A DNA stretch of 64,000 nucleotides from Candidatus Poribacteria bacterium (GCA_963665235.2 CAXXLX010000001.1:3136001-3200000), one strand, 5' to 3'; shown: positions 8,600 through 31,284, counted from the stretch's first letter. Made by a program: numbers and translations. Notes: generated by a model from the sequence alone, not told the origin.

Positions 8600-8636
8600 A
8601 AGGCAATTAGTAGTTTCGAACTTAATAAATTTTTAC

Positions 8637-8666: not shown

Positions 8667-8672
8667 ATAGGT

Positions 8673-8876: not shown

Positions 8877-8912
8877 GCGCGAGTATACAGAAACATGTAA
8901 AGGAGAACGCAA

Positions 8913-10960: not shown

Positions 10961-11002
10961 ACAGGTTTTTAACGCTGCTCGGAATAAATAGGAAAGGAAA
11001 AC

Positions 11003-12270
11003 ATGAACAAATTAAATTTACCAGCACATTGGAAAGTGGCAAGACTATCTAATCAGCAGCTATTCAGTTTTGAAAATGGTATTTGGAAAGGAAAAAAAGA
11101 ACCCTTTGAAGAGTGTGCTGTTGTAAGAAATACCAATTTTACCAGCGATGGATACCTTGATTTAACAGATGTAGCCATCTTATCTATAGAGCAGCGGCAT
11201 TTAACCAAGAAAAGTCTGAAATGGGGCGATATAATTATCGAGCGTTCTGGAGGCGGTCCTGAACAACCTGTTGGTAGAGTTGTGTTTTTTGACCTCAATG
11301 ATGGAACATACTGTTTTAGTAATTTCACAAGTCGTTTGAGGGTACTTGATAAAAGCATGATATGTCCTACCTACCTTTTTTTCTACCTTCTGTATTTTCA
11401 TGCTACAGCGCTTTTGAATCTGAAAGTCTACAAATAAGGACCACCGGTATAATCGACATCTATAGGTATTTGCGAGAGATTATTCAGAATCTAGTATGTC
11501 CCCTGCCCTCACTTCCCGAACAGCGCGCTATCGCCCACATCTTACAGACAATCCAAGAGGCAAAGTTTACCCGACAACGCGAAATTGCATTAGAGCGCGA
11601 ACGCAAAGCGGCATTGATGGCGCACCTCTTTTCACACGGCACGAAGGGTGAACCCCGCAAGCAGACAGAAATAGGCGAAATTCCTGAGAGTTGGGGGGTT
11701 GTTCAACTCAAAGAGATAGCCAATTTAAGGCGTGAGAATGTAAAACCTGAAGATAATCAGAACCTAAATTTTGTGGGACTTGAGCACATTGATTCGGGGG
11801 AGAGCATTCTAAAACGTTGGGGAGATGCTGCGGCGATGAAAAGTGCGAAAAATCGTTTTTATCCTGATGATGTCTTATATGGAAAGTTACGAGCTTATTT
11901 GGATAAAACAGTTATAGCTGAAATGGAGGGAATCTGCTCTACCGATATTCTTGTTTTTACTGCAAATTCAAAAATAGTCCCAAGATTTTTAGTTTATCTT
12001 TTGCATACTGAAGTGTTCGTGAATCATGCGGTATCAACATCAACAGGAATAAGCCATCCAAGGACCTCATGGAATTCTTTAGGAAAATTCACCTGCGCGC
12101 TTCCTCCGCTTTCCGAGCAATATGCCATTGCTGCCGTTTTTCAAGCGATTGATAAAAAAACAGCAGCCCTTGAACGAGAAGTTGAACTTATAGATGAACT
12201 CTTCCACGCCATGCTTGACGAACTAATGATGGGGCAGCGGCCTGCTGTGCCGCTGATTGATGCACCGTGA
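11003..12270 (+). pseudogene. hsdS: Type I R-M specificity subunit HsdS, frameshifted near 11400-11440
   Basis: Two TRDs with conserved spacers LPSLPEQRAIA, TEIGEIPESW, LPPLSEQ; ORFs 11003-11437 and 11362-12270 overlap out of frame. Confidence 0.85.
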
Positions 12271-12294
12271 CAGAACATTTTACGCGCTCGCTCG

Positions 12295-12323
12295 TTGCAA
12301 TTTTGCTTGTAAAGTGCTATAAT
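12295..12323 (+). promoter_or_regulatory. Sigma70 promoter with extended -10 upstream of the Septu-like pair
   Basis: TTGCAA 12295-12300, 17-bp spacer, TGcTATAAT (TATAAT 12318-12323). Confidence 0.65.
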
Positions 12324-12471
12324 TTGATAAATCACATTCATGGAGGCAAAAACATGTCATCAGCTGCAGCCGAGGCGAACATTACCCCTGAGGTGTCCCT
12401 CGACTCGGAACGCCGGTACAAGATATCTATGCACGCCTCACATTATCCGATTAAAATATTGGAGGTCCGAG

Positions 12472-13734
12472 ATGGTTTTAAAATCGATCCGTTTAAAAAA
12501 CGTCAAATGTTTTTCTGATATTGCTCTATCATTTGAAGACGAGGGTGGCGATATCCGCAAGTGGACACTACTTCTCGCTGAAAATGGTGCTGGCAAGAGT
12601 ACGTTGCTGAAAGCCATCGCCCTTGCAACTGCGGGAAGTGATGCCATAGCTGATCTGTTAGGGAAACCTTCCGATTGGATTCGGTATCGGACCAGAGGAT
12701 GTGAAATCTCAGCCGTTTTGGGTACAAAGGAAGGAGAAGAGCGGGAGGTTCGCTTACAGCTTGAGTCTAAAGATACTCGGGCGGATATCATCGTAAAAAA
12801 TAGAGAACATCTCGCGTGGCTTGATAATGCCCTAAACCGAAAAAACAGAGACTATTTTGTTGTAGGCTGTGGGGCATCGCGACGGTTCCATACGGTAAAC
12901 AGCAGGAGAACAAAGACATCGGGATTTACGAGCAAAAGAGCCCAACGCGTCGCGACCCTATTTGATCTCGACGCAACCCTTACGCCAATTGATGGATGGG
13001 TAATGGATATGGACTACCTTGAAAACTGGACTGGGCGGGAAACTGTTCTAGGGGTGCTCAGCAATTTGTTACCGGAAATAAAGTTTGACAGTATTGATAA
13101 GCGGAGTGGTCATCTGCTGTTTCAGACACCGGATGGAATTGTGCCGTTACACTCCCTCAGTGACGGGTATCTTGCAATGGCGGCTTGGATAGGGGACCTA
13201 TTATTCCAAGTTTTAGACACCTTCGAGGACTTACAGAAAGAACCACTTACTGCAAGGGGGCTGCTTCTCATTGATGAGGTTGACCTGCATCTCCATCCAA
13301 AGCGGCAACGCGAACTGCTCTCGTTTCTCAATAAATGGTTACCGAATTTTCAATTCATTGTAACAACGCACTCACCTATGACAGCTCAACAGGCAGGCGA
13401 AGGGGAACTCTACTGCCTGATGCGCGAAGCCGGGGACATTCAAATCTATCCGTTTGCTGGTCCCCCGAAAATGCTTCTTTTACACCAATTGGTGATGACC
13501 CCCGCGTTTGGATTGGATACTGATGAATCAAAAGAGATTGAGGATATGAAGAATCGATACCGCTACCTCCGGGACAAAGCGGAAAAATCGGTTGAGGAAC
13601 GTGAGGAACTGAAGCAGCTGACCGAGCTGCTCACTGAGCTCCCTATTGGCGATAGATCAAATATAGGTGTTTCTGAAAAACACGCGGAACTTTTGCGAAA
13701 AATTGAGAAGGAATTGCGGGAGGGGAAAGTGTGA
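12472..13734 (+). CDS. ptuA: ABC/AAA-type ATPase, Septu PtuA-like
   Basis: Start ATG 12472 after GGAGG; Walker A ENGAGKST, signature LSDGY, Walker B LLIDEVDLHLHP, TTHSP; coupled to an HNH gene. Confidence 0.8.
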   Translation: MVLKSIRLKNVKCFSDIALSFEDEGGDIRKWTLLLAENGAGKSTLLKAIALATAGSDAIADLLGKPSDWIRYRTRGCEISAVLGTKEGEEREVRLQLESKDTRADIIVKNREHLAWLDNALNRKNRDYFVVGCGASRRFHTVNSRRTKTSGFTSKRAQRVATLFDLDATLTPIDGWVMDMDYLENWTGRETVLGVLSNLLPEIKFDSIDKRSGHLLFQTPDGIVPLHSLSDGYLAMAAWIGDLLFQVLDTFEDLQKEPLTARGLLLIDEVDLHLHPKRQRELLSFLNKWLPNFQFIVTTHSPMTAQQAGEGELYCLMREAGDIQIYPFAGPPKMLLLHQLVMTPAFGLDTDESKEIEDMKNRYRYLRDKAEKSVEEREELKQLTELLTELPIGDRSNIGVSEKHAELLRKIEKELREGKV

Positions 13735-14609
13735 TACCCTTGAAGAGGAGCCGTTCCGAGAAGGACATCTACCCCAACTTTCACGGCAAGGCAAAGAGAA
13801 CTTTTGAAAAGGAATTGCTGCTCAACCAGAGGCGTATCATGCGCGGCGAAATTCGAAAACACACTTTCAATAGCGAGCGCTGGAAAAAAGCGAAAAAACA
13901 ATTGCTTGCCGAGACAGGCGGTAAATGTGCCTACTGCGAAGTATCAATTTCAGAGGCCGCGTTCGGGGATGTTGAACATTATCGCCCCAAGAGTAAGTAT
14001 TGGTGGCTCGCTTACTGCTATGACAATTATCTTGCCTCATGTCAACTGTGCAATCAGAAGTACAAGAAAGATGCTTTTCCTGTCCAAAATTGGCGGATGT
14101 GGCAACCTATAATTTGGAGCGACATATCAGACGAATTTATAGCGGCTATAACAGGGACAATCGCGCCCGACCCGTTGAATAAAACGCAGGTTAACGCCTT
14201 CATCCACCGCCATGAACAGGAACGTCCACTTCTGCTCAACCCTTATTTCGATGATCCTTCTGAATACTTTGCATGGAGAGCTGATGATGTACTGAGAGAA
14301 GTTGAAATCACTGCTAACCCTGACAGTCCGGAAGTTGAAACCATTGCTAACACAAGAAACCGTGAAGTTGAGTCTATTGCTGCAGCATCCATTGATCACT
14401 ATGGTTTGAATCGTAAGGAACTCAGAAATCGCAGATACAGGATTTACAAGCAGTATAGAAGATTCAAACAAATACTTGAAGATAATGGAATCAGTCCAGA
14501 AACTCGGAACCTGAGTATAAGTGCTATAGAAGAAATGAAGGCACCGGATGCCAGATTCGCAGGTATGATTCGGTACTTTGATGAACTTCCTTCTAAATCT
14601 GAACCTTGA
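13731..14609 (+). CDS. ptuB: HNH endonuclease, Septu PtuB-like
   Basis: CAYCE...VEHYRPK...YDNYLASCQLCN, LLLNPY; GTGA overlap with the ATPase stop. Confidence 0.8.
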   Translation: MIPLKRSRSEKDIYPNFHGKAKRTFEKELLLNQRRIMRGEIRKHTFNSERWKKAKKQLLAETGGKCAYCEVSISEAAFGDVEHYRPKSKYWWLAYCYDNYLASCQLCNQKYKKDAFPVQNWRMWQPIIWSDISDEFIAAITGTIAPDPLNKTQVNAFIHRHEQERPLLLNPYFDDPSEYFAWRADDVLREVEITANPDSPEVETIANTRNREVESIAAASIDHYGLNRKELRNRRYRIYKQYRRFKQILEDNGISPETRNLSISAIEEMKAPDARFAGMIRYFDELPSKSEP

Positions 14610-17098
14610 ATTGGAATATATTGCCCTATTCGTATAATTCGGAGACAACTATGTCTGAACGTTCCGCAGTCCAAGAGCCGATGCTCCAATACGCCGATGA
14701 AATAGGTTGGGAGTTTATCCCTCCATCAGAAGCGATGCAGATGCGTGGAGGTAATACCGCAGTGCTCTATTTTATCGATGTCTTGAGGACGCAACTCTTG
14801 AAACTCAACGCAGGTGTCATAGACGAAGTTAATTGCGATGAGATTATGCGGCAGCTGAGTATTCTCAAAGCGACCCTTGAGGGAAATTGGGAAGCCTTGT
14901 TGTGGATGCGCGGTGAAAAGTCAATTTTTGTTCCAAGCCAAAACCGCGAGCGCAATGTCACCCTAATTGATTTTGAAACCCCGACAATAATCGATTTCAC
15001 GTCACCGATGAATGGGAACAGCGAGGTGTTGTTCACACCAACCGCGCCGATGTTGTGTTTTTAATCAACGGCATCCCGGTGGCAGTCGTAGAGGCGAAAT
15101 CTGCTAAGAAGACAGATGGGGTAGCACTCGGTGTTGAACAGGTACGCCGTTACCACGACGAGACACCGGAGATGTTCACCACCGCGCAACTCTTCGGTGT
15201 CACACAACTGCTGGACCTCTTCTACGGCGTGACGTGGAACACCAGCCGCAAAAATCTGTTCAACTGGAAAATCGACGAACCCACCAACTACGAGCAGAAG
15301 GTTAAGACCTTCTTCGAGCGCGAACGTCTTTTGCAGGTGCTGCAGCAGTCCATTATCTTCCAGAGCAGAGACGACCAGCTCACCAAAATCGTGTTGCGTC
15401 AACACCAGACGCGTGCAGTGGAGAAAGTGATTGAGCGGGTTCACAATCCGGACAAACGGCGCGGGCTTGTCTGGCATACACAGGGCAGCGGTAAAACCCT
15501 CACGATGATAACCATTGCTGCTCGTCTCCTCCGCGGCGGAGAACAGACAGAAAAACCCACCGTGCTGATGGTCGTTGACCGCAATGAATTAGAGAGCCAA
15601 CTTTTTAAGAATATCACCGGTTATGGCATTACGACACCTGAGGTTGCAGAGAGTAAAGCGGCTTTAGAGAGAATCTTAGCCTCCGATTACAGAGGTTTGG
15701 TCGTATCAATGATTCATAAATTCGACAAGCGTCCGGCAAATCTTAACACCGGTGAGAACGTGATAGTATTGATAGACGAGGCGCACCGCACTACCGGCAG
15801 CAATTTTGGAAATTATCTGATGGCAGCTCTGCCTAACGCAACCTATATCGGTTTTACTGGAACACCTATCGATAGACTTTCTAAAGGTGAGGGAACGTTT
15901 AAGGTGTTCGGTGTAGATGATGAACAGGGGTATCTTGATAAATATGCAATCGCTGCATCTATTGAAGATGGCACAACTGTCTCGTTGAATTACGCGCTTG
16001 CCCCATCCGGTTTGCAGGTTGATTCTGACATATTAGACCGGGAATTTCTAAATCTTGCAGCATTGGAGGGCGTTAGTGACCTTGATGAACTGAACGCCAT
16101 TCTTGAACGTGCTGTCAATCTGAAAGCGATGATGAAAACCTCTGAGAGGGTAGATGGCATTGCAAAATACGTTGTCCAACATTTCCAAGACACTATAGAA
16201 CCGATGGGTTTCAAGGCGTTTCTGGTGGCTGTAGACCGTGAGGCGTGTGCTTCGTATAAAAAGGCATTGGATAAATATCTACCATCGGAATATTCGGAGG
16301 TTGTCTATTCCTCAAACAATAGAGATTCCGAGTTGATGAAAACGTATCACCACACATCGGCGCAGGAGAAGGAAATTCGTAAGCGATTCATTGACAAAAC
16401 ATCACAACCGAAGATTTTGATTGTAACTCAGAAATTGTTGACTGGCTTCGACGCGCCGATTCTTTACTGCATGTACCTCGATAAACCGATGCGCGACCAT
16501 GTGTTATTACAAGCAATTGCCCGTGTTAACCGACCCTACGAAGACGAAGATGGTTTGGTAAAACCCGCTGGTTTCGTCTTAGATTTTGTCGGCATCTTCG
16601 AAAACCTTAAAAAAGCACTCGCTTTCGATTCCGATGAAGTAGCGAGTGTGATTCAGAATATTGATGTGCTCGAAGCGGCTTTCGCCAAACGCATCCGCGA
16701 AGACGCAGCGGCATATTTACCCTTCACTAAAGGTTGGGATGATAAGGCGAAAGAACGAGCCATTGAACATTTTGAGGATAAGGACAAGCGAGAGGTTTTC
16801 TTCAAATTCTTCAGGGGGTTACAAAATCTCTATGACATTCTTTCACCGGATGCCTTCTTACGCGAATTCATAGCGGACTATCAGGCATTGGCAACCCTTT
16901 ATGGACTGATTCGTACCGCCTATTCCGATCGGATCTACGTTGATAAGGAGTTAACCGCCAAGACGCAAGAACTGTTGCAGGAGCATACGGAGAGCAATCC
17001 GTTTGAAGTGCCAGGGGCCGTTTATCAAGTCTTCCGCTACAAAACCCCCGTGCTTTAGCTGGGGGATGTAGTCGCGGCGCATGTACTAAAATTTTAAT

Positions 17099-17127
17099 TT
17101 GACATTCTACTAAAAATGAGGTATAAT
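17099..17127 (+). promoter_or_regulatory. Consensus sigma70 promoter of tnpA
   Basis: TTGACA 17099-17104, 17 bp, TATAAT 17122-17127. Confidence 0.8.
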
Positions 17128-17160
17128 ATATATATAATCTAACATAAAAAGGTTTTTAAA

Positions 17161-17574
17161 ATGAAGTTAGAAACACCCGAGTTAGTATATCAAAAGACAC
17201 GTTCCTCTACATACGCCTGTGAGTATCATATCATTTGGTGTACGAAATACAGGCGCACGGTTTTGTCTACTGAAATCCAAAATAGGTTTAAAGACCTTGT
17301 CTTAGAATCTCAAGATAAATACGGTTACGTTGTCCGTGCGGTGGAAACCATGACGGACCACGTGCATTTGTTGATTAGCATTCCTCCCACGGGAGCTGTT
17401 GGTATCATGATTGGCAAGATAAAAGCAATGACGGCAAAAGTGTTACGTGAGGAGTTTCCACACTTAAAATCAAGACTTCCGAATTTGTGGACACGCTCCT
17501 ATTTTGTTGCCTCTACAGGCGGTGTAACCCTCGATGTTTTAAAGCAGTATGTAGCAGATCAAAAAGGTGTATAG
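17161..17574 (+). CDS. tnpA: IS200/IS605 Y1 (HUH) transposase
   Basis: YHIIWCTKYRR, DHVHLL (HUH), LWTRSYF, catalytic Tyr in QYVADQ. Confidence 0.95.
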   Translation: MKLETPELVYQKTRSSTYACEYHIIWCTKYRRTVLSTEIQNRFKDLVLESQDKYGYVVRAVETMTDHVHLLISIPPTGAVGIMIGKIKAMTAKVLREEFPHLKSRLPNLWTRSYFVASTGGVTLDVLKQYVADQKGV

Positions 17575-18785
17575 TGCGAAACACAAAACACAAACTTTTT
17601 CACGATAAGACCTTAAAGCGTCTACATGACGACCTAAATATCTGTGGTGTTGTGCGAAATCACTTCATCGCCCTATCTATGCGATATTACCGTCGCTACG
17701 GTAAGGGTTTGTCGTATGGCAAAATGTCTGCGCACCTAACAAAACTAAAGAAACTGAAGAAGTATGCCCATTGGAATATTCCGTATTCCTGGGCGTTACA
17801 AAATGTGGTGAAACGCCTTGCTCAATCTTTTAGAGACATGCGGACGCACAAACGCGGGCACCCCCAATTCAAGAAATGCCACAAGCACAAAGGCATGACG
17901 TTTCGCGGTGAACAGGTGAAAATAGAAAAGTTGCTTGCCCCACAAAAGCACGAAAGAAATAATCCTACCTATAAAATTCGCCTAAACGGACACTGGTATC
18001 GTTTTGCTTTGCATCGCGAGATAAAAGGTGAAATTAAAGAAGTTCACGTCACCCGTGACGCACTCGGAGCCCTCTATATCACACTCACTGAAGACTATAG
18101 CGAAGTCCTACCCGAGCCCAAGACAGGTAAAGCTGAAGGGTTTGATATGGGTATCAAAGATTTCCTGACTGGCAGTGATGGTAAACGATATATGTCTCCT
18201 ATGTTCTACAAACAGAACGCGAAAGACTTAGCCAAGGCACAAAGGGCGTATTCACGCAAGGTTTCAGGTTCTAATAATCAAGCACGAAGTCGGCAGCAAG
18301 TTGCACTTATCCATAAGCGGACTGTGAATCAGAGAATAGACCACCATTGGAAACTTGCTATTGACCTCTGTCGGCAGTTTGATATTCTGTTCTTTGAAGA
18401 CCTAAATCTTAAGGGCATGAAACAGATTTTAGGGAAACAAGTATCGGACCTTGCTTTTGGTGAGTTCATGCAAAAACTGAAACACCAAGCGAAAAAGCGG
18501 ATACGTTTTGTGCTGAAGATTGACCGTTGGATACCCACAACAAAAACCTGTTCTGTTTGCGGAGATAAAAACGAAACACTCACGTTAGCAGATAGAGAAT
18601 GGACCTGTCCGAGTTGCTATACGCATCTTGACAGAGACCACAACGCTGCTATCAATATTCTTAAGGAGGGGGTAGCCTCCTTTGGGTTAGGTATTGTAAG
18701 ACCTATTGTTTTGTTCAACAAAATTGTAGGCATCACCGTTGAAGCCACCAGTCGGCTTCTGAATTCCACAAATGCTTTCGTCTAA
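17574..18785 (+). CDS. tnpB: RNA-guided endonuclease TnpB
   Basis: GTG start overlapping tnpA TAG; RuvC-I GFDMG, RuvC-II FEDL, Zn finger CSVC/CPSC, RuvC-III DRDHNAAINI. Confidence 0.93.
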   Translation: MRNTKHKLFHDKTLKRLHDDLNICGVVRNHFIALSMRYYRRYGKGLSYGKMSAHLTKLKKLKKYAHWNIPYSWALQNVVKRLAQSFRDMRTHKRGHPQFKKCHKHKGMTFRGEQVKIEKLLAPQKHERNNPTYKIRLNGHWYRFALHREIKGEIKEVHVTRDALGALYITLTEDYSEVLPEPKTGKAEGFDMGIKDFLTGSDGKRYMSPMFYKQNAKDLAKAQRAYSRKVSGSNNQARSRQQVALIHKRTVNQRIDHHWKLAIDLCRQFDILFFEDLNLKGMKQILGKQVSDLAFGEFMQKLKHQAKKRIRFVLKIDRWIPTTKTCSVCGDKNETLTLADREWTCPSCYTHLDRDHNAAINILKEGVASFGLGIVRPIVLFNKIVGITVEATSRLLNSTNAFV

Positions 18786-18847
18786 CATAGGACGGAAGCC
18801 CCCAGGCTTTAGCTGGGGGTCTATCACGAATTGAACGCGGACACCTT
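18650..18847 (+). ncRNA. Predicted TnpB omega/reRNA (scaffold to 18827, guide from right flank)
   Basis: Inferred from established TnpB biology; the 5' boundary is approximate and not visible in the sequence. Confidence 0.5.
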
Positions 18848-19321
18848 GCACAAAATGGATCAGAGCGATGCATCCGATACGGTCAAGGTGCAGAATTTAA
18901 GGAGGGTATTGCATCAGACGGTAGCAGACGAAGGCAAATCAAAACCTTTCCTCATCTCAATTGGTGAACGCGCAGAAGCGGTTGCAGAGGTTTATGAAAA
19001 TCGTCAGGTTGGAACGCAAGACATTTTAGCTGAATATAGGAGGTTAGCTGAAGAAGTTTCACGCGCTACAAGAGAACAGAATCAGATGGATATGGACCAG
19101 AATACCTATGCGGTCTATACGGTTCTCAGAAATGCTATAGAAGATGTTAACCCAGAGCAGGCGCGAGCCGTTAATCAGGTGTTTGCAGAATTTCCCGATT
19201 ATCGGTGGGATGACCATCAACAAAACCAGTTACGGAGGACACTCTACAAAACATTGAGACCCACTATCGGTAACGAAAACCTAATCGAAACGACGAACAA
19301 ATTGTTGAGGTTAGAACGCGT

Positions 19322-19636
19322 ATGAACACCGATAGAGCGGATTTGAAAGGAGCAGTGCGGCAGTGGGCAGTCCACATCGGTGTTGAGGTACGAGAGATTC
19401 ATCTACGGCACATGCAACGGAAGTGGGCATCTATATCCACGAACGGACGTTTAACCCTCAACACAGAGCTGCTCAGCATGCCCGAAACGTTGACAGAATT
19501 CGTGATTGTCCATGAGTTGGTACATCTGCTTGTCCCGAATCACGGCAAGTTGTTTAAGGGGTATATGTCCGCGTATCTGCCGGATTGGGAGGAACGGCAG
19601 TTCCGTTTAAAATCGTTATCTGTGGAGAACGTTTGA
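19322..19636 (+). CDS. Short M48/YgjP-like (DUF45) metallopeptidase commonly found after hsdR
   Basis: MQRKWAS, VIVHELVHL, NHG..F; ATGA overlap with the hsdR stop. Confidence 0.85.
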   Translation: MNTDRADLKGAVRQWAVHIGVEVREIHLRHMQRKWASISTNGRLTLNTELLSMPETLTEFVIVHELVHLLVPNHGKLFKGYMSAYLPDWEERQFRLKSLSVENV

Positions 19637-19735
19637 AAAAACTTTGATGCAGCGAATAAAATATGTTAAACTCTAAACGTAACGAAACATTTTACCTTTA
19701 CTGACCTCTTTTGCAGAAAAAATGTTGCAAGTATT

Positions 19736-20704
19736 ATGAAATCAAAATATAGCAAATCTCTACTCATTTCAATTGTACTACACCTCGGCATCGGCCTCAT
19801 AGGTTTCTTTTACTGGTTCGGCACCAACCCGATGGACGACACGCCAAGCATTGAAGCACTCTTTGTCCAGGCAGAAAAGCCGAAACCGAAACGGATACCG
19901 CCACCAAAACGTCCGCAAGTGCAACGCAAAACGACACGTCAGGTGAGCGAACCGAAACTGAAAATTCTCACGAGCAATCAACCGGCAACATACCGCGGAA
20001 TTGTTTCAGCTGCTGAGCCGACCGAGTTTCAACCGGTCGGTAAACTGAATCTGGCGGAAAGCGTCGAGCCCATGCCGACCCAAATTGAATTTCAAGAGAT
20101 ACCCCGCATACAGCGCGGCGTTGAACAGCCTATCAAGAAACAGCCAGAGACGGAAACCCGCTATAAGAGCCGTTTGGTTAAGTTCATTGAAGCGCAACCG
20201 GGCCCGCAAAGCATCGTCTACTGCGTCGACCTATCTAACAGCATGCAAGATTTGCCCGCCCATAAACTCAAAAAGATTATTGACCTCATGCGCAACTCGT
20301 TGACATTCCTTGAACCGCACGACCGCTTTAATATCATGGCGTTTAGTGCTGAATTAGTTATCTATCAGAAGCAGTTTGTCCCAGTGACAGCGGAGACGGT
20401 GACCGCCTCGGCAGTGTATTTAGCGAACATCACATCTCACATTCACACAGATGGTGCTGACCACGATATGCTAACAGCGTTGACAGAAACGGCAAAAACC
20501 GCGCCCACTATCGTTGTGCTCTTTAGCGATGGAATTCCGACCAGTATTGCTGTACCAAACCTCACGTTGATAAGCAGGCATGCTGAAGGGAATGGACAGA
20601 TTTTTGCTATGAGCATCGGGATGGCACCCGATTTTCCCGGTGCAGTGATGCTAAAGCAGCTTGCCACTGTGAGTAAAGGCGACTTTTGGCTTGTCGATAG
20701 GTAA
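19736..20704 (+). CDS. Membrane-anchored VWA-domain protein
   Basis: N-terminal TM (SIVLHLGIGLI), Pro/Lys-rich linker, MIDAS DLSNS, LFSDG. Confidence 0.8.
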   Translation: MKSKYSKSLLISIVLHLGIGLIGFFYWFGTNPMDDTPSIEALFVQAEKPKPKRIPPPKRPQVQRKTTRQVSEPKLKILTSNQPATYRGIVSAAEPTEFQPVGKLNLAESVEPMPTQIEFQEIPRIQRGVEQPIKKQPETETRYKSRLVKFIEAQPGPQSIVYCVDLSNSMQDLPAHKLKKIIDLMRNSLTFLEPHDRFNIMAFSAELVIYQKQFVPVTAETVTASAVYLANITSHIHTDGADHDMLTALTETAKTAPTIVVLFSDGIPTSIAVPNLTLISRHAEGNGQIFAMSIGMAPDFPGAVMLKQLATVSKGDFWLVDR

Positions 20705-20752
20705 AAAAGTCGTAGGCGGACACCGTTGCACCGTAACAAGAGAAATAACCGC

Positions 20753-22540
20753 ATGTCCCCATCATCAATTCACACGCGTGCAGAGAAAATTGCTGAAGGA
20801 TTGTATCCGCACCAAATAGAGGGTATCGCCTTTCTGCTTGGTCGTCGCCGCGCGCTTCTTGCTGACGATATGGGGCTCGGCAAAACCCGACAATCTATCA
20901 TCGCCATGGTTGAAGCGGAAGCGGAGGGCCCCTATCTCGTTATATGTCCGGCTTCTGTCAAACGGAATTGGGCACGCGAAATCCAAATCGTGCTTCCGAC
21001 AGCCAACCCCACTATTGTCGGCCCCGCACCGCTTCCATCAAATAATTACCGAGACTGGATTATCATCAACTACGCGCTGCTCGGTAAACATATAGAGGGT
21101 CTCCTCACATTTGACTGGAAAGGGGTTGTTTTTGACGAGGCGCATTACCTGAAAAATCATCAGAGCCAGCGCAGCCGGAACGCTACCAAACTACTCAAAG
21201 CGATTCCGCATGAGCCGATAGTCCACGCCTTAACCGGCACCCCGATGACGAATCGGCCCCGCGACCTTTTCCCACTCTTGCAATTAACAAATCACCCACT
21301 CGGCAAAAGTTTTCTCAGCTTCGCCAAGCGTTACTGTGATGCCTATCAGGGGGAATACGGTTTGGTAGCCGATGGCGCAAGCAATATTGAGGAATTAACT
21401 GTCCAGCTTCACGGAGTCATGCTGCGCCGCACTAAAAATGAGGTATTGGACCTACCCCCAAAGGTGCGAACGTGGTTGGATGTTGAACTGCACCCTTACG
21501 CCATTCAACACTTCAATAGTGCGGTCCGTGAGTTTCTGACCAAATTTGATGCAGCTGCACCTGTCGAGGCTTCTGAGGCGGAGCCGGAAAATTCGGGGCG
21601 GCGGCACGCTGTCGGTCGGTTAACCACTGCCCGCCGAAAGCTCGCCTTTGCCAAATGCAGGCAGACCACCAAGTTCGTCGAAAACGCCTTAGAACAGGGT
21701 GAAAAGGTTATCCTCTTCACTAATTTTCTCAATACAATGGAACGTTTCCACAAGCATTTCGGTGACCGAGCCGTTTTCGTCTCTGGTGAAGTGTCCGCCG
21801 AAGAACGACAAAATCGGGTTGACCAATTTCAAAACGACAAAAACGTCAGACTTTTCATCGCCAATATGCACACCGCCGGGGTAGGGATAAATCTAACGGC
21901 AGCACGCCAAATCGTCTTCAACGATTTAGATTGGGTTCCCGCAAATCACTGGCAGGCAGAAGACCGTGCTTACCGCATCGGGCAGACCGGAACTGTTAAC
22001 GTCACCTATATGATAGCGCGCGGCACGGTAGATGAATTTGTCAAAACTGTGCTGGAAACCAAAGCAGCACTTATGGCTGCTGTCGTTGAAGGCACACTGC
22101 TGATACCGAATAGCGAAGGTGAGGTGCAAACCGATGTCCTCAGCGAACTCAAGCGGATGATGAACATCCTCTCCGTACATGCCACCGATGTTGCGGAGAC
22201 AGAGCTGCACGGTGTACTCCAAAAAGCGAGCGACACCTATCTTGAAGAGAACGTCTCACATCTCAAGGAAGCTGCTCGGGTGCAGCTACGTCCCTATTCC
22301 GAAGAAGCCATCCGTACCTTAGTCCAAGTCCTCGCCGGTCCGAAGCGGCAGTGCTATCGTGTTGAGAGTTCATCACAAAACGGCAAGTTTTACACGTTGG
22401 AGGTTGTCGGGGTGGATGTGACCTGCGATTGTCCGGGCTTTACGCACCGCGGGAGCTGCCGACATGTCAGGCCTCTGAAAGCTGCGCTCGTTGCAGAAAA
22501 ACCACCCCCAGAAGAATATAGGAACGTTTCATCCGATTAG
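20753..22540 (+). CDS. SNF2-family helicase/ATPase with C-terminal SWIM zinc finger
   Basis: LADDMGLGKT, FDEAH, LTGTP, GVGINLT, QAEDRAYRIGQ; C-terminal CDCPGFTHRGSCRH. Confidence 0.9.
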   Translation: MSPSSIHTRAEKIAEGLYPHQIEGIAFLLGRRRALLADDMGLGKTRQSIIAMVEAEAEGPYLVICPASVKRNWAREIQIVLPTANPTIVGPAPLPSNNYRDWIIINYALLGKHIEGLLTFDWKGVVFDEAHYLKNHQSQRSRNATKLLKAIPHEPIVHALTGTPMTNRPRDLFPLLQLTNHPLGKSFLSFAKRYCDAYQGEYGLVADGASNIEELTVQLHGVMLRRTKNEVLDLPPKVRTWLDVELHPYAIQHFNSAVREFLTKFDAAAPVEASEAEPENSGRRHAVGRLTTARRKLAFAKCRQTTKFVENALEQGEKVILFTNFLNTMERFHKHFGDRAVFVSGEVSAEERQNRVDQFQNDKNVRLFIANMHTAGVGINLTAARQIVFNDLDWVPANHWQAEDRAYRIGQTGTVNVTYMIARGTVDEFVKTVLETKAALMAAVVEGTLLIPNSEGEVQTDVLSELKRMMNILSVHATDVAETELHGVLQKASDTYLEENVSHLKEAARVQLRPYSEEAIRTLVQVLAGPKRQCYRVESSSQNGKFYTLEVVGVDVTCDCPGFTHRGSCRHVRPLKAALVAEKPPPEEYRNVSSD

Positions 22541-23594: not shown

Positions 23595-23697
23595 CTCCTT
23601 GACATATTAGATATTGACAAGAGTCGTCTAACAATTTTCTACATTACAAATATTATAGCACAATGTCAACTTATTGCAATCGTTTTGCAATTTAAAC

Positions 23698-23727
23698 TTG
23701 ACGTACCCACAAAATTAATGCTATACT
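23698..23727 (+). promoter_or_regulatory. Promoter of the SIR2-APAZ/pAgo operon
   Basis: TTGACG 23698-23703, 18 bp, TGcTATACT (23722-23727). Confidence 0.6.
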
Positions 23728-23838
23728 CAATTTCAGTGGGACGAGCCTGTTAGTTGAAAACCCTTCGGGGCGGTATGTGTCCCGTAATATTCAGATTTGG
23801 CATTAGCATTTACCACAAAATCTTGAGAGGACAGCATT

Positions 23839-26601
23839 TTGGTATTTCAAACGGCAACTATTGGACGCTTACGTTCACTCTTTTCACAGGGCCCCGAGCC
23901 GATTTTCCTGCTGGGTGCTGGTGCTTCTGTTAAATCGGGTATTCCACTATCACATGATATGGTGGAAAAAATCGCTAGATGGGGGTACTGCCTTGATAAC
24001 GGCTTGGAGCCGAAAGACCCACGCCCACGGCGTAGCGACTGGTACCCGTGGTTGAGAAGGCAGAAGTGGTATCGAGAGGATTGGGAATTGGTGGCGCACT
24101 ACCCCGCAGCTGTAGAAAATACGCTTCGACCCCGTCAAACCCGAAAAGATTTCTTTCTGGACATCCTAAAGACACAGGTGGAACCGAGTAGCGGTTATAA
24201 GCATCTTGCGGAACTTATGGCGCGGGAACACGTTCGTACCGTGCTCACCACAAATTTTGATACAATTTTGCAAGATGTGTGCAAAGCAAACAAGCGGCCC
24301 CACCATATAGAGGTCATCCAGACAACGTCTGACTATACGAAATTATCAACGAGTCTGCCATACTCACAGCTCGTCTATCTGCACGGTTCCGTTGAACATT
24401 ACACCGACAAGAACACTGTTGCTGAAATAAACGAAGAACTGCACCCGGACCTTGTATCAAAGGTGCTGCCATTTTTAAGAGACCACCCGTTGATTGTCAT
24501 AGGTTATCGAGGGGCGGAACCTTCTATCATGAAGCATCTTCTTATTGATAATGCAGCGGCGGCAGAGGGATATCGACACGGCATCTATTGGTGCGCGCGA
24601 AATTATACAGAAGATTCTGACAGTCTCACTCCGTTCGTACATGAACTCGCCGGAGAGATTCAAGCAAACTTTCAGGTTGTCCCTATTGATGGATTTGATG
24701 AAGTAATGGAGGACTTATGGCATCACGTTCAACAGCACGTGCAGGATTATCATCAACCGCAAGTCCACACGGTTACAGAAGAATCGCCATCGCTTCCCCA
24801 TGATTTCAAGAAACTCACCGACGCTACGCTAGATGATTTTGATTGGCCCCCTATGAGAGTTCGACTATTGCAGTACTGCCAAACGACCGTATTACAAATA
24901 CCACCTGTAGGTGTTAGGAACGACGATTGGTTTACGCAACTATTGTGTAATCAACATCTCGCTTCACGGACAGAAGAGGGGAACATTTTCCCAACGGTGG
25001 GGGGGTACTTACTCTTTGCTGAAACCCCACAGCACCAAATCCAAACTGCTCAAGTCGTAGTACGTCTAAAGGGAGATGCAAAGTGGCTCAGAACTGTTTT
25101 CGATATCTCCGAGGGGGAGACAGAGCAGATAATCGTAGGGAACCTTTGGGCCCAACTTGAAGATATATATACCCTATTTTCCCGTGTCAACCGCGGGTTC
25201 GTCCTAAAAGGCGGGCGACACTCAAAAAATGTGTCCCCCTATCCGCCAGATGCTTTGAGAGAGATAGTTGTCAATGCACTTGTGCACCGTGACTACAAGA
25301 AAGATGCACCCATCCTGATTGAAATTGAGCAGACCTATATTCGTGTCCACAATCCAGGCGGATTGGTTCAAGATGTTGTAGACCAGATGAGAGGAACATC
25401 CCAAGAAGAGATAAAAAGCGTGTTTGAAACAAAAATCAAAGGTGGAAACAGCATCCAAGGTTACCGAAACCCGGTGGTAGCAGACCTGTTCTACGGGGCA
25501 GCGGAAATGGAGAAGGCAGGCTCTGGACTATCAAAGGTATGGCAGGCAAGCGAGGAGAACAACAATGAAGTGAGCTTTGGACCTGTGGATAACAACACCG
25601 CTTTTGAAATAACAATCTCCCGGCGCCCAGAAGTCGTTGACGATACTACGGGAACTGCCTATAGGGAGGATAATTTCGACCGCTACGCGAGCAATCTCCT
25701 TGAGGTCAGCAGCTTCCCTGAGGTCGTTTGGCACGCTGGCACCGACGCACGAAAAATAGGGGAGGTGTGGGACAAAACCGGTGCAGACTGGTTGCCACCG
25801 TTTATGCTCTATGCTGAAAGACTTTTCACTTTCGACATGCTTTCCACACCCGCCAATCCGCTCTATCCTATAATAGACGCTAACGATATAGCGAAGATGA
25901 CTGTTGACGAATTTATCGACGTTCACGGTGAACAACGTTTCGTCTGGCTCCTCAATACGTGTTTTTTCAGACATCTTGAGGCACAAGGACTATGGGTAGA
26001 CAAAACGCGAAAACGTGCATATTTTCCTAAAACCGATGAAAATGCTCGAGAGGTCACCTATCAGGCGCGTGTGCGCCGTGCCACCCGAAAAGTGGTGAAA
26101 AAGAGAAAAAATTATTGGGAGCATAAATCCTTTTGGTTTCGGTTTGAACGTTTCGGTGATTTTTGGGCACTTGTCCTACTTCCCAGTTATGTTTTCACTA
26201 CTGATGGAGAAGATGCACGTTTACCAAGGGATTTGGTTAACAAATTTTCCAATAGGCACCAAAGTCGCGACTATAACAATGTTGTCCACAATGACCTTGT
26301 GTTCTGGACACAAGTGCTTTCAGGTGGAAAACAGGGCACTTTTGCACTCAATACAGGGCAAGCTGACACGATTGCAGCAAACGAAATTCATCAACTCAGC
26401 AGACCCCAAATCCGGATTACAGCAAACCTGTCTGCAACCGAAGGGCTCGATTTCAAGGCTGATGCGCGGGGCATTGAACGCTCTGATAAGTTGGATACTA
26501 CCCAATTGGAGGCGGAATTCTCACAGGCTGTTTCACAATTGGCGGAGGAAGAAGATGTTAATTCAGATGGAACTTACCCATTTACCGCCTCCCGAAATTG
26601 A
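23839..26601 (+). CDS. SIR2 - RecG-C/HATPase_c_4-like (GHKL fold) - APAZ effector of a short pAgo system
   Basis: SIR2: LLGAGAS, TTNFD, YLHGS, VIGYRG. Middle: PTVGGYLLF, YPPDALREIVVNALVHRDY, NPGG, RNPVVADLF, EKAGSG. C-terminal APAZ-like: SNLL, RAYFP, YWEH, LPSYVFTTDG, YNN...FW. Overlaps the pAgo gene. Confidence 0.85.
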   Translation: MVFQTATIGRLRSLFSQGPEPIFLLGAGASVKSGIPLSHDMVEKIARWGYCLDNGLEPKDPRPRRSDWYPWLRRQKWYREDWELVAHYPAAVENTLRPRQTRKDFFLDILKTQVEPSSGYKHLAELMAREHVRTVLTTNFDTILQDVCKANKRPHHIEVIQTTSDYTKLSTSLPYSQLVYLHGSVEHYTDKNTVAEINEELHPDLVSKVLPFLRDHPLIVIGYRGAEPSIMKHLLIDNAAAAEGYRHGIYWCARNYTEDSDSLTPFVHELAGEIQANFQVVPIDGFDEVMEDLWHHVQQHVQDYHQPQVHTVTEESPSLPHDFKKLTDATLDDFDWPPMRVRLLQYCQTTVLQIPPVGVRNDDWFTQLLCNQHLASRTEEGNIFPTVGGYLLFAETPQHQIQTAQVVVRLKGDAKWLRTVFDISEGETEQIIVGNLWAQLEDIYTLFSRVNRGFVLKGGRHSKNVSPYPPDALREIVVNALVHRDYKKDAPILIEIEQTYIRVHNPGGLVQDVVDQMRGTSQEEIKSVFETKIKGGNSIQGYRNPVVADLFYGAAEMEKAGSGLSKVWQASEENNNEVSFGPVDNNTAFEITISRRPEVVDDTTGTAYREDNFDRYASNLLEVSSFPEVVWHAGTDARKIGEVWDKTGADWLPPFMLYAERLFTFDMLSTPANPLYPIIDANDIAKMTVDEFIDVHGEQRFVWLLNTCFFRHLEAQGLWVDKTRKRAYFPKTDENAREVTYQARVRRATRKVVKKRKNYWEHKSFWFRFERFGDFWALVLLPSYVFTTDGEDARLPRDLVNKFSNRHQSRDYNNVVHNDLVFWTQVLSGGKQGTFALNTGQADTIAANEIHQLSRPQIRITANLSATEGLDFKADARGIERSDKLDTTQLEAEFSQAVSQLAEEEDVNSDGTYPFTASRN

Positions 26602-28042
26602 ATTTGGTTCGCCGGTCATCTCTACCGATTTGAAAATCGGACTTACTGAAGCAGGCCCGTTCGACCTGCGTTTCGGGGCCGCTCACAAAAAAGAAATTCG
26701 CGTTGGGCTCGTCGGAAATGCCGAAATGCTAAAGCAGGCGCAGCAATGGCTTAAACGTTGTCAGGCGCACATCCCATCGGAATTGGACACTGAAGGCTCC
26801 ACACAACATAAGGCGTTTCCCGGATTTGAACCTATTTTCCGTGCCTCACTTGTAGTGAACGAGCAATGGACAGAACTAATTGGAGATAATGAGCTTGAGG
26901 CGGCACTCTCAAAAAATAATCCATCCCGTTTTGAGGCGGTGTTAGCACGTTATGCAAACGCAGCCGAGAAACTCGCTGATAACACCAATATCCCCCCCGA
27001 TGTTGTGATATGTTGTTTGCCTGACGAAGTCGTCCAAACCTGTTCGAGCATATCAAAATCCTTGACTCCACAGCAGCGGAAACTCATTAAGAGGCGACAA
27101 GCTGAACGTGAACAGGGACAACTCGTTTTATTTGACGACATAGAAGAGACAGAAACTGATCTGCTGAATCGGGATTTCAGACGTGCTTTAAAAGCCCGGA
27201 CCATGAAATTTGGTATGCCAATTCAGATTGGGACAAATCGTCTGTTTGAAGATCAGGACACTAATCAGGATGCTGCTACGCGAGCGTGGAACATGAGCGT
27301 GGCACTCTATTACAAAGCGGGCGGGATACCGTGGCGTTATAAAACAACAGGTCCAGAAACCTGCTTTGTCGGTATCAGTTTTCATCACCTGCGAACGCCA
27401 ACAAAACATATTGTCTACGCTAGCTTAGCACAAGCGTTTTCAAGTCGTGGCGAAGGGTTTGCACTTCGCGGAGAACCCATCCCTTGGAAGGAAAAACAGG
27501 GCAGAAATGTTCATCTAACTGCTGAACAAGCAACCAAACTTGCAGGTCAAGTCCTTCAAGAATACAGTGAACAGACAGGCGGAAATCCGAAGCGGGTTGT
27601 GCTTCATAAAACATCAAAATTTGATGACTCGGAACAGGAAGGCTTTAAACACGGTTTTCGCGATATTCCGATAGTTGAATTAATTAATATTATGCCGACA
27701 CACTTTCGGCTCTTGACATACGGCGCGTATCCACCGACAAGAGGAACTTTTTGTACGGTGAATAAGACAGCCACATATCTGTTCACCACAGGTTACATGC
27801 CTGAATGGCGAACATATCCCGGTCCCCACATCCCTGCCCCCGTCCGGCTTGTAAGCGATGATAATGTCGACATGCATCAGGTCGCTGCTGATATCCTAGG
27901 TCTTGCCCGGATGAATTGGAATACTGCAAGCATGAGCAGTGGTCATCCTGTGACGCTCTATTTTTCCCGTCGCGTTGGGGGTATTATGGCAGAAGTAGGA
28001 GAAAACGAACAGCCGCATCCCTCTTTCCGGTACTATATATAG
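26555..28042 (+). CDS. Short prokaryotic Argonaute (MID-PIWI, catalytically inactive)
   Basis: Start ATG 26555 after GGAGG; DFRRALKA, PIQI, AWN..VALYYKAGGIPW, CFVGISF, VVLHKTS, YPPTRGT, YPGPHIPAP, ILGLARMNWN, PVT, C-terminal FRYYI; no DEDX tetrad. Confidence 0.93.
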   Translation: MLIQMELTHLPPPEIEFGSPVISTDLKIGLTEAGPFDLRFGAAHKKEIRVGLVGNAEMLKQAQQWLKRCQAHIPSELDTEGSTQHKAFPGFEPIFRASLVVNEQWTELIGDNELEAALSKNNPSRFEAVLARYANAAEKLADNTNIPPDVVICCLPDEVVQTCSSISKSLTPQQRKLIKRRQAEREQGQLVLFDDIEETETDLLNRDFRRALKARTMKFGMPIQIGTNRLFEDQDTNQDAATRAWNMSVALYYKAGGIPWRYKTTGPETCFVGISFHHLRTPTKHIVYASLAQAFSSRGEGFALRGEPIPWKEKQGRNVHLTAEQATKLAGQVLQEYSEQTGGNPKRVVLHKTSKFDDSEQEGFKHGFRDIPIVELINIMPTHFRLLTYGAYPPTRGTFCTVNKTATYLFTTGYMPEWRTYPGPHIPAPVRLVSDDNVDMHQVAADILGLARMNWNTASMSSGHPVTLYFSRRVGGIMAEVGENEQPHPSFRYYI

Positions 28043-28134: not shown

Positions 28135-28245
28135 ACACCCTAAAATCCGTGTCCTCTGTGTTCTCCGCACTAATCCGCAATTCTGAACACGCGCCAAATC
28201 CACTCTTCCACTCTTCCATCCTTCCATTCTTCCATCCTTCCATCT
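28135..28245. repeat. Composite short-tandem-repeat element (9-bp CACGGA/CAGAGGA units plus 8-bp TCTTCCA units)
   Basis: Inverted related copies at 35884-36160. Confidence 0.7.
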
Positions 28246-28287: not shown

Positions 28288-28316
28288 TTGACATATCTCT
28301 GAAAATTTTCTAAAAT
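28288..28316 (+). promoter_or_regulatory. Sigma70 promoter of the sulfatase operon
   Basis: TTGACA 28288-28293, 17 bp, TAAAAT 28311-28316. Confidence 0.65.
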
Positions 28317-28355
28317 AGATATAGTCAAACCGAAATAGAAAGGAAAAACAGAGAT

Positions 28356-29723: not shown

Positions 29724-30869
29724 ATGAAAATTACAGACGTTAAAACCCTAGTGATGGGGACAAGTTGGCGCAACTTAACCTTCGTTAAAGTTGAAACCGA
29801 TGAAGGTTTGACAGGTATCAGCGAGGTGCGAATGAACAACCGGACGGATGCCCTCGTTGCGTATATTGATGGCGCGAAACGTCGACACATCATCGGCAGC
29901 GACCCGTTCAATACGGAAGACCTCTACCAACGCATGTTCCGAGATGACTACGGACGGGCCGGTGAAATCGTAGCGACCGGCATCAGCGTTGTGGAAATTG
30001 CATGTTGGGATATTATCGGTAAGGCATTGAACCAACCTGTCTATCGCTTGCTCGGTGGAAAGTGCCGAGATGAAATTAAGGCTTATGCAAACGGGTGGTA
30101 TCGTGTCGAACGAACCCCGGCGGAATTTCATGCCGCCGCCAAAAAGGTGCTCGAAAAAGGATATAAAGCACTCAAGTTCGACCCGTTCGGGGCAGGTTAT
30201 TATGAGCTCTCTTACGAGGAAAAGTTGAGATCTGTTTCACTTGTTGAAGCGGTGCGGGATTCTGTCGGGCCCGATGTGGAAATCCTCGTCGAAATGCACG
30301 GTAGGTTCAGTCCTTATACAGCGATAGAGATTGCCGCAGAATTGGAGAAATTTCAACCGAGCTGGGTGGAAGAGCCTGTACCCCCGGATAACATCGCAGC
30401 ACTTGCCAAGGCAGCCGATAAAATTAACCTGCCTGTCGCCACCGGCGAAAGACTTCACAACAAATATGAGTATCGCGAACTGATAAACCTACAGGCAGCC
30501 GATATTCTCCAACCCGATATTACACAAACAGGGGGTTTTTTGGAAACAAAGAAAATCGCCGCAATGGGGGATATGTGTTATATGACTGTGGCACCCCATA
30601 ACGTCGGCGGTACGGTTTCTACTGCAGCTGCTTTACATCTCGCTGCCTGCACAACCAACTTCAAAATCCAGGAGAATTTCAACGACTTTTCTGAAGCATG
30701 GGTTAAGGAGGCAGCGACAGGATGCCCCGAAGTCATCGATGGTTATTTCAGCTTGCCGAACGGGCCCGGGCTCGGCATGGAATTGAATGAAGACCTTATC
30801 GCTGAACATCCCTATCGTGAAGGGTCATTCAACCTTTGGGAAGACGATTGGCACAAACGGGAGTATTAG
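29724..30869 (+). CDS. Enolase-superfamily sugar-acid dehydratase (galactonate dehydratase-like)
   Basis: KVETDEG, WDIIGK, YANGW, KFDPF, EMHGR, WVEEP, TGERL, QPD, APHN. Confidence 0.88.
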   Translation: MKITDVKTLVMGTSWRNLTFVKVETDEGLTGISEVRMNNRTDALVAYIDGAKRRHIIGSDPFNTEDLYQRMFRDDYGRAGEIVATGISVVEIACWDIIGKALNQPVYRLLGGKCRDEIKAYANGWYRVERTPAEFHAAAKKVLEKGYKALKFDPFGAGYYELSYEEKLRSVSLVEAVRDSVGPDVEILVEMHGRFSPYTAIEIAAELEKFQPSWVEEPVPPDNIAALAKAADKINLPVATGERLHNKYEYRELINLQAADILQPDITQTGGFLETKKIAAMGDMCYMTVAPHNVGGTVSTAAALHLAACTTNFKIQENFNDFSEAWVKEAATGCPEVIDGYFSLPNGPGLGMELNEDLIAEHPYREGSFNLWEDDWHKREY

Positions 30870-30870
30870 A

Positions 30871-31284
30871 ATGAGACAGACAACGGAAATTGAACTTACA
30901 AATTTGGGAGACGTAGTTTTGGCAAACAGAGATATTATTACCCCCGAAGAGGTTCGCAGTGTGGTAGTTGAAGATGCCCTCGTTGATACGGGGGCAACAC
31001 GGTTATCTTTACCGAAACCGATCATTGAACAACTCGGTTTGACCCCCTTCGACACATTGAAAGCGAGAACCTCGAATGGCATCGTAGACCGGACCCTTTA
31101 TTCAGCAGTTCAATTCACTGTATTGGGTCGGACAGGTTCGCTGCCTGTAACGGACCTACCATCGGATGCCCCTGTACTTGTTGGACACATGGTTTTAGAA
31201 CAATTGGACCTCTGTTTAGATATCAGAAAAGGGCTCATCTATAACCCAGAGCACGACAACGAATGGATTGACGAGGCGTGGTAA
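30871..31284 (+). CDS. Clan AA (retropepsin-like) aspartic protease
   Basis: ALVDTGAT, VLVGHMVLEQLDL; likely start ATG 30871. Confidence 0.8.
   Translation: MRQTTEIELTNLGDVVLANRDIITPEEVRSVVVEDALVDTGATRLSLPKPIIEQLGLTPFDTLKARTSNGIVDRTLYSAVQFTVLGRTGSLPVTDLPSDAPVLVGHMVLEQLDLCLDIRKGLIYNPEHDNEWIDEAW

Follow-up and report, generated by a model that had tools for sequence, protein, structure and literature searches.

SPARSA, a short prokaryotic Argonaute (pAgo) system, pairs a protein whose SIR2 domain lies N-terminal to an APAZ domain with an inactive MID-PIWI partner. Its output is RNA-guided DNA recognition leading to NAD+ depletion, and Cui et al. 2024 (PMC11452484) attribute its activation to a tetramerisation that brings H186 into alignment. 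SPARHA, SPARDA and SPARTA carry an HNH, DREN or TIR effector. In the SLFN-pAgo RzAgo, a single long-B polypeptide with a PAZ domain is armed with an AlbA_2 tRNA nuclease, and the preprint on it (10.64898/2026.05.29.728809) names the pairing of AlbA_2 with PF13749 "Schlatpase". According to the same preprint, the RzAgo domain binds ATP, whose gamma-phosphate is coordinated by E314 and N318 together with Mg, and hydrolyzes it to ADP. ATP binding drives the formation of a tetramer, and it is as a tetramer that the Schlafen tRNA nuclease is put together for activity. Here, we describe an operon at positions 23839-28042 of a 64,000-nt stretch of a Candidatus Poribacteria genome (GCA_963665235.2, CAXXLX010000001.1:3136001-3200000; the window) that joins features of these systems. 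Its first gene encodes a SIR2-GHKL-APAZ protein and its second a short pAgo. Sequence comparisons indicate that SIR2 stands in this protein where a Schlafen-ATPase ("Schlatpase") module would have its AlbA_2 nuclease, which it has replaced.

Both genes lie on the + strand. Gene 1 (23839-26601) encodes 920 aa from a TTG start that lines up with the initiator methionine in the consensus of its homologues. Gene 2 (26555-28042) encodes 495 aa from an ATG within the open reading frame (ORF) 26144-28042, and its N-terminus, MLIQME, agrees with the MLI.ME start of its homologues. These ORFs bear out the layout given in the original prediction, which had been made from the DNA sequence alone and described a two-gene operon with a 47-nt overlap (26555-26601). 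The motifs that it quoted are all present in the translations: GAGAS (26-30), TTNFD (137-141) and HGS (182-184) in the N-terminal part of gene 1; REIVVNALVHRDY (474-486), NPGG (505-508), RNP (543-545) and EKAGSG (558-563) in its mid-region; and GISF and HKTS in gene 2. Both frames are intact, with all conserved residues kept. The proposed architecture of SIR2, GHKL-like ATPase and APAZ together with an inactive short pAgo is confirmed by Pfam, profile and PADLOC matches, at a level that chance could not produce.

The SIR2 domain, of the NADase type, covers residues 1-305 (23839-24753, + strand). Pfam SIR2_2 matches residues 134-257 at 8.1e-10. A search of the PDB with a profile of gene 1 built from 36 homologues matched three separate stretches, in the first of which residues 15-305 align with the SPARSA protein GsSir2 at 1.5e-20. 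When the two proteins are aligned, N139 and H182 correspond to GsSir2 N142 and H186, and the domain ends at about residue 300. Among 52 family members taken as cluster representatives (28-64% identity), all match SIR2_2 at E <= 0.001 and all have N139; H182 is conserved in at least 90%. The full-length structural model of gene 1 likewise matches the SPARSA chain 8y80_E (2.7e-18), with ThsA-type SIR2 proteins as weaker matches in both profile and structure searches. The operon thus shares with SPARSA its domain order around SIR2, an inactive partner and the same catalytic Asn and His, and by analogy the same output would be expected. GsSir2-APAZ, however, has 584-587 aa and no GHKL module.

That additional module spans residues 306-603 (24754-25647, + strand). 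A linker (301-320) leads into a small N-terminal subdomain (about 320-395), which is followed by the Bergerat ATP-binding core (about 396-603). Pfam HATPase_c_4 (PF13749) matches residues 490-577 with 28.6 bits (cut-off 26). In the PDB search with the gene 1 profile, residues 440-515 matched 3LMM, and a deeper profile, built from 62 sequences of just the middle region, matched 3lmm_A residues 151-400 at 5.1e-29. The AlphaFold2 model of residues 300-620 has a mean predicted local distance difference test score (pLDDT) of 91.3 and a predicted TM-score of 0.88; in the full-length gene 1 model (pLDDT 87.9), 301-320 and about 611-620 are low-confidence linkers. Foldseek returned 16 matches to the middle model at E <= 0.001, including 3LMM at 6.7e-12, and among the 13 matches listed four were 3LMM chains and nine were histidine-kinase catalytic cores or PDK. 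VIA-align, run against about 48,000 representative chains, gave 3LMM with a Z of 21.6 over 254 aligned residues. By title, the 49 further matches listed (Z 6.4-8.6) are all histidine-kinase-type ATP-binding domains, including histidine-kinase catalytic domains, CheA P4, PDK2, BCKDK and SpoIIAB-/RsbW-type anti-sigma factors. Since these matches span model residues of about 97-304, the Bergerat core can be placed at about 396-603, and the subdomain preceding it is shared with 3LMM only. A middle region without a GHKL-like fold had been named as grounds for giving up the original prediction; model confidence, Foldseek and VIA-align instead confirm a GHKL/Bergerat fold for the modeled module. A search of the ESM Atlas with residues 300-470 was uninformative (best score 0.86, no family attached).

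The motif residues of the GHKL module are strongly conserved. E475, N479, H483, G507, N544, G561 and G563 are invariant among the 52 representatives, and the E, N, H, R, N and G positions are invariant over 62 modules, 49 of them from stand-alone Schlatpases. The N-box pair E475 and N479 is therefore kept in 52/52 representatives and 62/62 modules, and the G1-box glycines are retained as well (G507 invariant, G508 in at least 90%). The motifs are maintained in family members belonging to Rhodothermales, Sphingomonadales, Rhodobacterales, Bacteroidota, Verrucomicrobiota and Acidobacteriota.

The nearest solved relative of the module, DIP2311 (3LMM), is a COG2865-type stand-alone Schlatpase, and residues 306-603 are homologous to 3LMM residues 148-425. 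Stand-alone Schlatpases have AlbA_2 in front of this region and a winged-helix/HTH behind it, whereas gene 1 has SIR2 and APAZ in these places. The remark that RecG-C domains normally follow AlbA held in all 10 stand-alone relatives scanned: AlbA_2 lies at about residues 10-130 and PF13749 starts 160-180 residues later. As PF13749 starts at residue 490 in gene 1, residues 306-490 represent the inter-domain stretch and SIR2 occupies the AlbA_2 position. Consistent with this, AlbA_2 (PF04326) had no match in gene 1 at E <= 1 and was found in 0/52 representatives at E <= 0.001, as against 51/52 for HATPase_c_4. We also considered whether residues 300-470 are a degenerate AlbA_2, and this was ruled out by the Pfam scans and by hhalign, which aligned the segment to the AlbA_2 profile with a probability of 0.7% and to the post-AlbA_2 segment of the stand-alone proteins with 99.3% (E 2.3e-20, 142 columns). 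Between the end of SIR2 at about residue 300 and the homology to 3LMM, which begins at its residue 148-151, there is no space for an AlbA_2 domain. In a quick tree, the GHKL modules of all 13 SIR2-GHKL-APAZ proteins fell on one side of a branch separating them from 49 stand-alone modules (SH-aLRT 99), and for this reason the sequences are compatible with an origin by a single fusion event. The replacement of AlbA_2 by SIR2 had escaped the original prediction. Six short matches looked like GHKL-APAZ proteins lacking SIR2. Of these, P0126, P0134, P0212 and P0221 are truncated gene calls, since they begin inside the SIR2 tail, which leaves P0138 and P0152 as possible cases.

With SIR2 in the AlbA_2 position, gene 1 and gene 2 present the same order as RzAgo, i.e., effector, PF13749 GHKL domain, N-terminal side of the Argonaute and MID-PIWI, as well as the same E-x3-N motif. 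The operon differs in having a SIR2 effector without AlbA_2, an APAZ domain with a short pAgo, and two genes. By residue arithmetic and the shared Pfam family, rather than by alignment, E475 and N479 correspond to RzAgo E314 and N318 with an offset of 161. Applied to the ends reported for RzAgo SLFN (1-142) and Schlatpase (1-442), this offset gives 303 and 603, both of which coincide with low-confidence linkers of our full-length model. The same preprint describes an "SLFN-APAZ" set, and SIR2 is absent from its main text. Because that set was selected by PF04326 matches, it is a different family from SIR2-GHKL-APAZ.

We next turn to the sensor half. The APAZ domain of gene 1 lies at residues of about 610-860 (25666-26418, + strand). 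In the PDB profile search, residues 623-841 matched the HNH-APAZ protein of SPARHA (9om4_A) at 3.7e-23 and the DREN-APAZ protein of SPARDA (9jsb_D) at 5.5e-9. The APAZ profile matched HNH-, DREN- and DUF4365-APAZ chains, while the GsSir2 chain was matched over its SIR2 part only. In the structure search, the full-length model matched partner chains of SPARSA, SPARHA, SPARDA and SPARTA in addition to 3LMM, with TMt values of 0.75 for 9om4_A and 0.69 for 9qbp_A (root-mean-square deviation 3.3). Gene 1 ends in an acidic tail (residues of about 875-920; 26461-26598, + strand) that is modeled with low confidence apart from being given one helix at 887-908. It has 10 D+E among the last 45 residues, and 10-19 were counted in 10/10 homologues examined. 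Such a tail is described as conserved in S2A/S2B APAZ proteins and as autoinhibitory in SPARTA (10.1101/2023.09.23.559129).

Gene 2 matched the PADLOC model pAgo_I at 1.7e-153 over the whole profile (1-455 of 455), and its alignment with solved short pAgos (471-507 aa) extends over their full length. It consists of MID and PIWI only, without PAZ. Among solved pAgos it scored highest with that of SPARHA (9om4_B, 5.4e-71, 242.8 bits), followed by those of SPARDA (9jsb_A, 3.6e-49) and SPARTA (8qlo_B, 3.3e-48; SPARTA range about 1e-45 to 1e-48). The SPARDA and SPARTA pAgos ranked above GsAgo scored 157-171 bits, whereas GsAgo of SPARSA itself reached 76.5 bits (1.4e-20). S275 (in VGISF) and H351-K352 (in HKT) of the PIWI domain are invariant in 13/13 pAgos, and these columns are presumably the positions of the catalytic acids in active Argonautes. 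From its sequence, gene 2 is a catalytically dead short pAgo in which the DEDX tetrad is absent. Its MID pocket reads R209-K213-Q224-K254, with R, H or Y at position 209 across 13 aligned pAgos, and is of the RK type, a motif named for the SPARDA pAgo in 10.1101/2023.06.08.544223.

SPARHA, SPARDA and SPARTA thus contribute the closest solved pAgos and APAZ domains, and the acidic tail and RK-type MID pocket are further likenesses. In contrast to their effectors, the operon has SIR2, and it adds a GHKL module of about 300 residues between effector and APAZ. Based on the pAgo and APAZ matches, the sensor half belongs in clade S2, most likely S2B, a placement made by score ranking and not by a tree with reference clades, whereas the SIR2 half resembles SPARSA. 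SPARSA is assigned to clade S1A/S1B, and by score the pAgo and APAZ of the operon are not S1; the original prediction had missed this S2 affinity. A SIR2-effector subgroup is indeed described within clade S2B (10.1101/2023.06.08.544223). By analogy with the solved systems, the products of gene 1 and gene 2 would form a heterodimer.

Building on the domain anatomy, the fold, the conservation of residues and operon and the defense-island context that we observe, we consider it fairly probable that the operon encodes a clade S2B abortive-infection system that is guided by RNA, triggered by DNA and acts by depleting NAD+, and in which SIR2 assembly is gated by ATP-dependent oligomerization of the GHKL module. 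The pAgo and the APAZ domain would act as the guide-binding sensor, the guide probably being a 5'-phosphorylated small RNA that targets invader DNA, and the N-terminal SIR2 domain would be the NADase effector. ATP binding by the GHKL module would create a dimer or tetramer interface uniting the SIR2 domains. Two conditions would then have to coincide for NAD+ to be hydrolyzed: recognition of a target by the pAgo and APAZ, along with freeing of the acidic tail, and loading of the GHKL module with ATP. The guide and target type, the NADase activity, the binding of ATP and the ATP-driven oligomerization are what we infer here. An abortive-infection role was also part of the original prediction. 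Its suggestion that the GHKL module gates or oligomerizes the NADase gains support by analogy with RzAgo and SPARSA.

Several points weigh against this proposal. The Asp of the classical G1 box (DxGxG) is missing, with N at position 505 here and S/T in distant members; this loss is common to the whole PF13749 family, including the ATP-binding RzAgo. The correspondence with RzAgo, as noted, is arithmetic. The solved SPARHA and SPARDA relatives, of the S2B type, are filaments by their PDB entry titles, and the guide-bound filament of RzAgo is described as an inhibited state (10.64898/2026.05.29.728809). The active oligomer here may accordingly be a tetramer, a filament or both. A predicted complex of two middle modules with 2 ATP and 2 Mg (score 0.00, mark 0.42) was uninformative either way. 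Two homologous loci are decayed. In a Terriglobia locus (L012, 192-2736), two ORFs of 323 and 609 aa take the place of an unbroken gene 1, and in one relative (G014; L090, C63:5500-9400) an internal deletion has removed APAZ and MID, leaving gene 1 residues 1-587 and, about 140 nt on, pAgo residues 335-495. Finally, we found no experimental study of any family member in the literature, where subscription-only papers and supplements were not searchable.

An alternative is that the GHKL module is a nucleotide-independent spacer or a constitutive dimerization domain, and that activation proceeds through contacts between pAgo and effector alone as in SPARSA and SPARTA. These two systems operate without a GHKL module, the missing G1-box Asp fits such a role, and the RzAgo mutant E314A still oligomerized, though less efficiently, according to 10.64898/2026.05.29.728809. 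A mere spacer would, however, not be expected to keep its Mg-ATP ligands and glycine motifs. E475, N479 and the glycine motifs are invariant in the 52 representatives, down to 28% identity, and in stand-alone relatives, and we think this alternative unlikely.

It is also conceivable, if quite improbable, that the SIR2 domain ADP-ribosylates a target or makes a signaling nucleotide, with the GHKL module taking part in substrate handling. SIR2 folds allow several chemistries, and ThsA-type proteins are among the weaker matches. However, it is the SPARSA NADase that gives the best matches, and its catalytic Asn and His are present here as well; in addition, none of the 13 loci compared shares a conserved third gene that could read a signal; the two operon genes alone are common to all. 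Less probable still is that the operon is a silent or decaying relic without present function. The decayed copies in relatives and the neighboring hsdR, probably broken by a TnpB insertion, would suit a relic, but here both frames are intact, the conserved residues and ribosome-binding sites are present, and homologous proteins with 93% and 84% identity are found on other contigs. Least credible is a GHKL module that acts as a second effector and depletes ATP once triggered, as the original prediction had suggested without finding support here: RzAgo does hydrolyze ATP to ADP, and nucleotide-directed effectors occur in the wider family, in which PNP_UDP_1 or Metallophos precedes SIR2 in longer relatives, but ATP binding is an assembly switch in RzAgo, the fold neighbors are histidine-kinase-type domains, GHKL enzymes turn over slowly, and a NADase with intact catalytic residues is already there.

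Returning to the ATP-gated NADase, we can go further and tentatively view the operon as the NADase-armed, two-gene counterpart of SLFN-pAgo. It would have arisen by one ancestral SIR2-for-Schlafen exchange at a precise boundary and would work as an AND gate of guide-matched DNA and ATP-loaded GHKL, the longer relatives being multi-effector versions. On balance we would put this somewhat short of probable. To our knowledge, all short-pAgo systems characterized so far couple target sensing directly to effector assembly. In the present family, sensor and effector are separated by a conserved module predicted to act as a nucleotide-binding switch. Should ATP binding prove necessary, the operon would be a short Argonaute system that also responds to a second input, a metabolic one, and the Schlatpase GHKL would be a portable assembly device that can control effectors as unrelated as a tRNA nuclease and a NADase. 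The parallel with SLFN-pAgo turns an "unknown insert" into a testable ATP-gating hypothesis.

This hypothesis is directly testable because the system occurs in cultured strains, among them Sphingobium mellinum DSM 7458, Pontibacter litorisediminis KCTC 52252, Shimia biformata JCM 18818 and Sphingopyxis indica DS15. A Mesorhizobium plasmid is a further carrier. A word-indexed search found at least 120 full-length-like gene 1 homologues with 55-93% identity, and an exhaustive search with residues 300-920 gave 1647 representatives at E <= 0.001, of which 92 were at E <= 1e-30, which makes this a large family. A pAgo ORF of 493-507 aa lies directly 3' of gene 1 in 12/12 full-length loci, from at least six phyla of the genome collections. 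The distribution of gene 1 is patchy: of 40 relatives searched, 5 have it, and it occurs in 4 of 13 genera when that of the window is counted. A collection of phages yielded solely SIR2-domain matches, covering 29-31% of the query.

Some longer relatives (P0125, P0129, P0151, P0123, P0173 and P0147) carry an extra domain ahead of SIR2-GHKL-APAZ. The domains recognized are a PNP_UDP_1 phosphorylase (1221 aa), a calcineurin-like Metallophos (1267 aa) and a trypsin-like peptidase (1096 aa); other longer relatives have 220-400 N-terminal residues without a Pfam match, and that of P0123 resembles a restriction-endonuclease-type domain by appearance only. Stand-alone relatives of the GHKL module were also noticed. 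In P. litorisediminis, a divergent 522-aa ORF (L007:4029-5597, - strand) upstream of the operon resembles the GHKL part of the gene 1 homologues from 6 other loci, with E-values of 1.6e-11 to 8.2e-9, and looks, by sequence, like a stand-alone Schlatpase-like gene beside the system. The 5.3-Mb genome that contains the window has six more PF13749 open frames (L081-L086) of 397-591 aa, the size of stand-alone Schlatpases. A second pAgo was not found in this genome by tblastn.

As for its status in catalogues, the architecture is already known. PADLOC PDLC02402 matches residues 8-906 of gene 1 over positions 2-869 of its 876 with 1028 bits, and PDLC02418 ("Aga_SIR2-Kinase-PNTD1-PNTD2") gives 738.5 bits (2e-222); given this full-length model, the original prediction overrated the novelty of the system. 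Its statement that surveys list RecG/DHS-like APAZ fusions is correct: "RecG/DHS-like" is listed in 10.1101/2023.09.23.559129 and "DHS-like-APAZ" in Koopal et al. 2022 (PMC9097488). Going by these descriptions, og_40 of Ryazansky 2018, Koopal's "DHS-like-APAZ" (S2B) and "RecG/DHS-like" would be the family of the operon. Since AlbA_2 is absent, the description by Ryazansky 2018 applies to no more than the ATPase half of such a Schlafen-ATPase protein. What is new here is the replacement of AlbA_2 by SIR2 and the resulting parallel with SLFN-pAgo. Standard annotation pipelines miss the system. In RefSeq, the copy on the Mesorhizobium sp. B2-1-8 plasmid NZ_CP083953.1 (L091, 5950-9979) is annotated as a "SIR2 family protein" and a "hypothetical protein", the latter being the pAgo. 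NCBIfam contained no gene 1 model, and its pAgo match reached 1.4e-4 and 20.3 bits against a cut-off of 700.

With regard to expression, a Shine-Dalgarno-like GAGAGGA (23825-23831, + strand), read from the sequence, lies 7 nt 5' of the gene 1 TTG. For gene 2, a Shine-Dalgarno GGAGGA (26544-26549, + strand) is located within the 3' end of gene 1, five bases before the ATG. Together with the overlap, this arrangement suggests that the two genes are translationally coupled. About 110 nt upstream of gene 1 there is a weak promoter-like site (23698-23727, + strand), in which TTGACG and TATACT, with a TG, are separated by an 18-nt spacer (10/12 matches). Such sites were not above chance in the region (10 vs 6.7 +/- 3.1 in shuffles), and a terminator scan gave a result no higher than the shuffled expectation. 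The operon is not compositionally foreign, with a GC content of 0.476 against a genome mean of 0.477 (47th percentile of 2651 windows); the local dip in GC at the operon exists because the neighbors are richer in GC. A 26-nt direct repeat with 77% identity flanks the operon (23627-23652 and 28298-28323, 4671 nt apart). It was considered as an insertion scar but is too weak for this and may be due to chance. The same may be true of an 8-nt unit (TCCACTCT-like) present in about five copies at 28199-28238, directly 3' of the pAgo gene.

Judged by its neighboring genes, the operon lies at the edge of an upstream defense island (7349-22540 of the window). This island includes genes of a type I restriction-modification (RM) system, with hsdM (N6_Mtase) at 7349-8599, HsdS at 11362-12270 and hsdR in three pieces, which correspond to HSDR_N (14606-15064), the SWI2/SNF2 core (15055-17058) and a T1RH-like C-terminus (18831-19325). 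The space from hsdS to hsdR is taken up by a Septu PtuA/PtuB pair (12340-13734 and 13731-14609). Between the last two hsdR pieces lies a TnpB/IS605-type gene (17487-18785; OrfB_IS605 and Cas12f1-like TNB), and hsdR is probably disrupted. Further along the island are genes for a VWA protein (19736-20704) and for an SNF2 helicase that is ZorD/DpdE-like by score (20726-22540). The plasmid copy in Mesorhizobium is likewise flanked by defense-type genes, namely AbiEi, a PD-(D/E)XK nuclease and type I RM genes. On the other side of the operon, a 165-aa ORF (30787-31284) with retropepsin-like aspartyl protease matches (gag-asp_proteas, 1.1e-6) overlaps the end of an enolase-superfamily gene (29724-30869).

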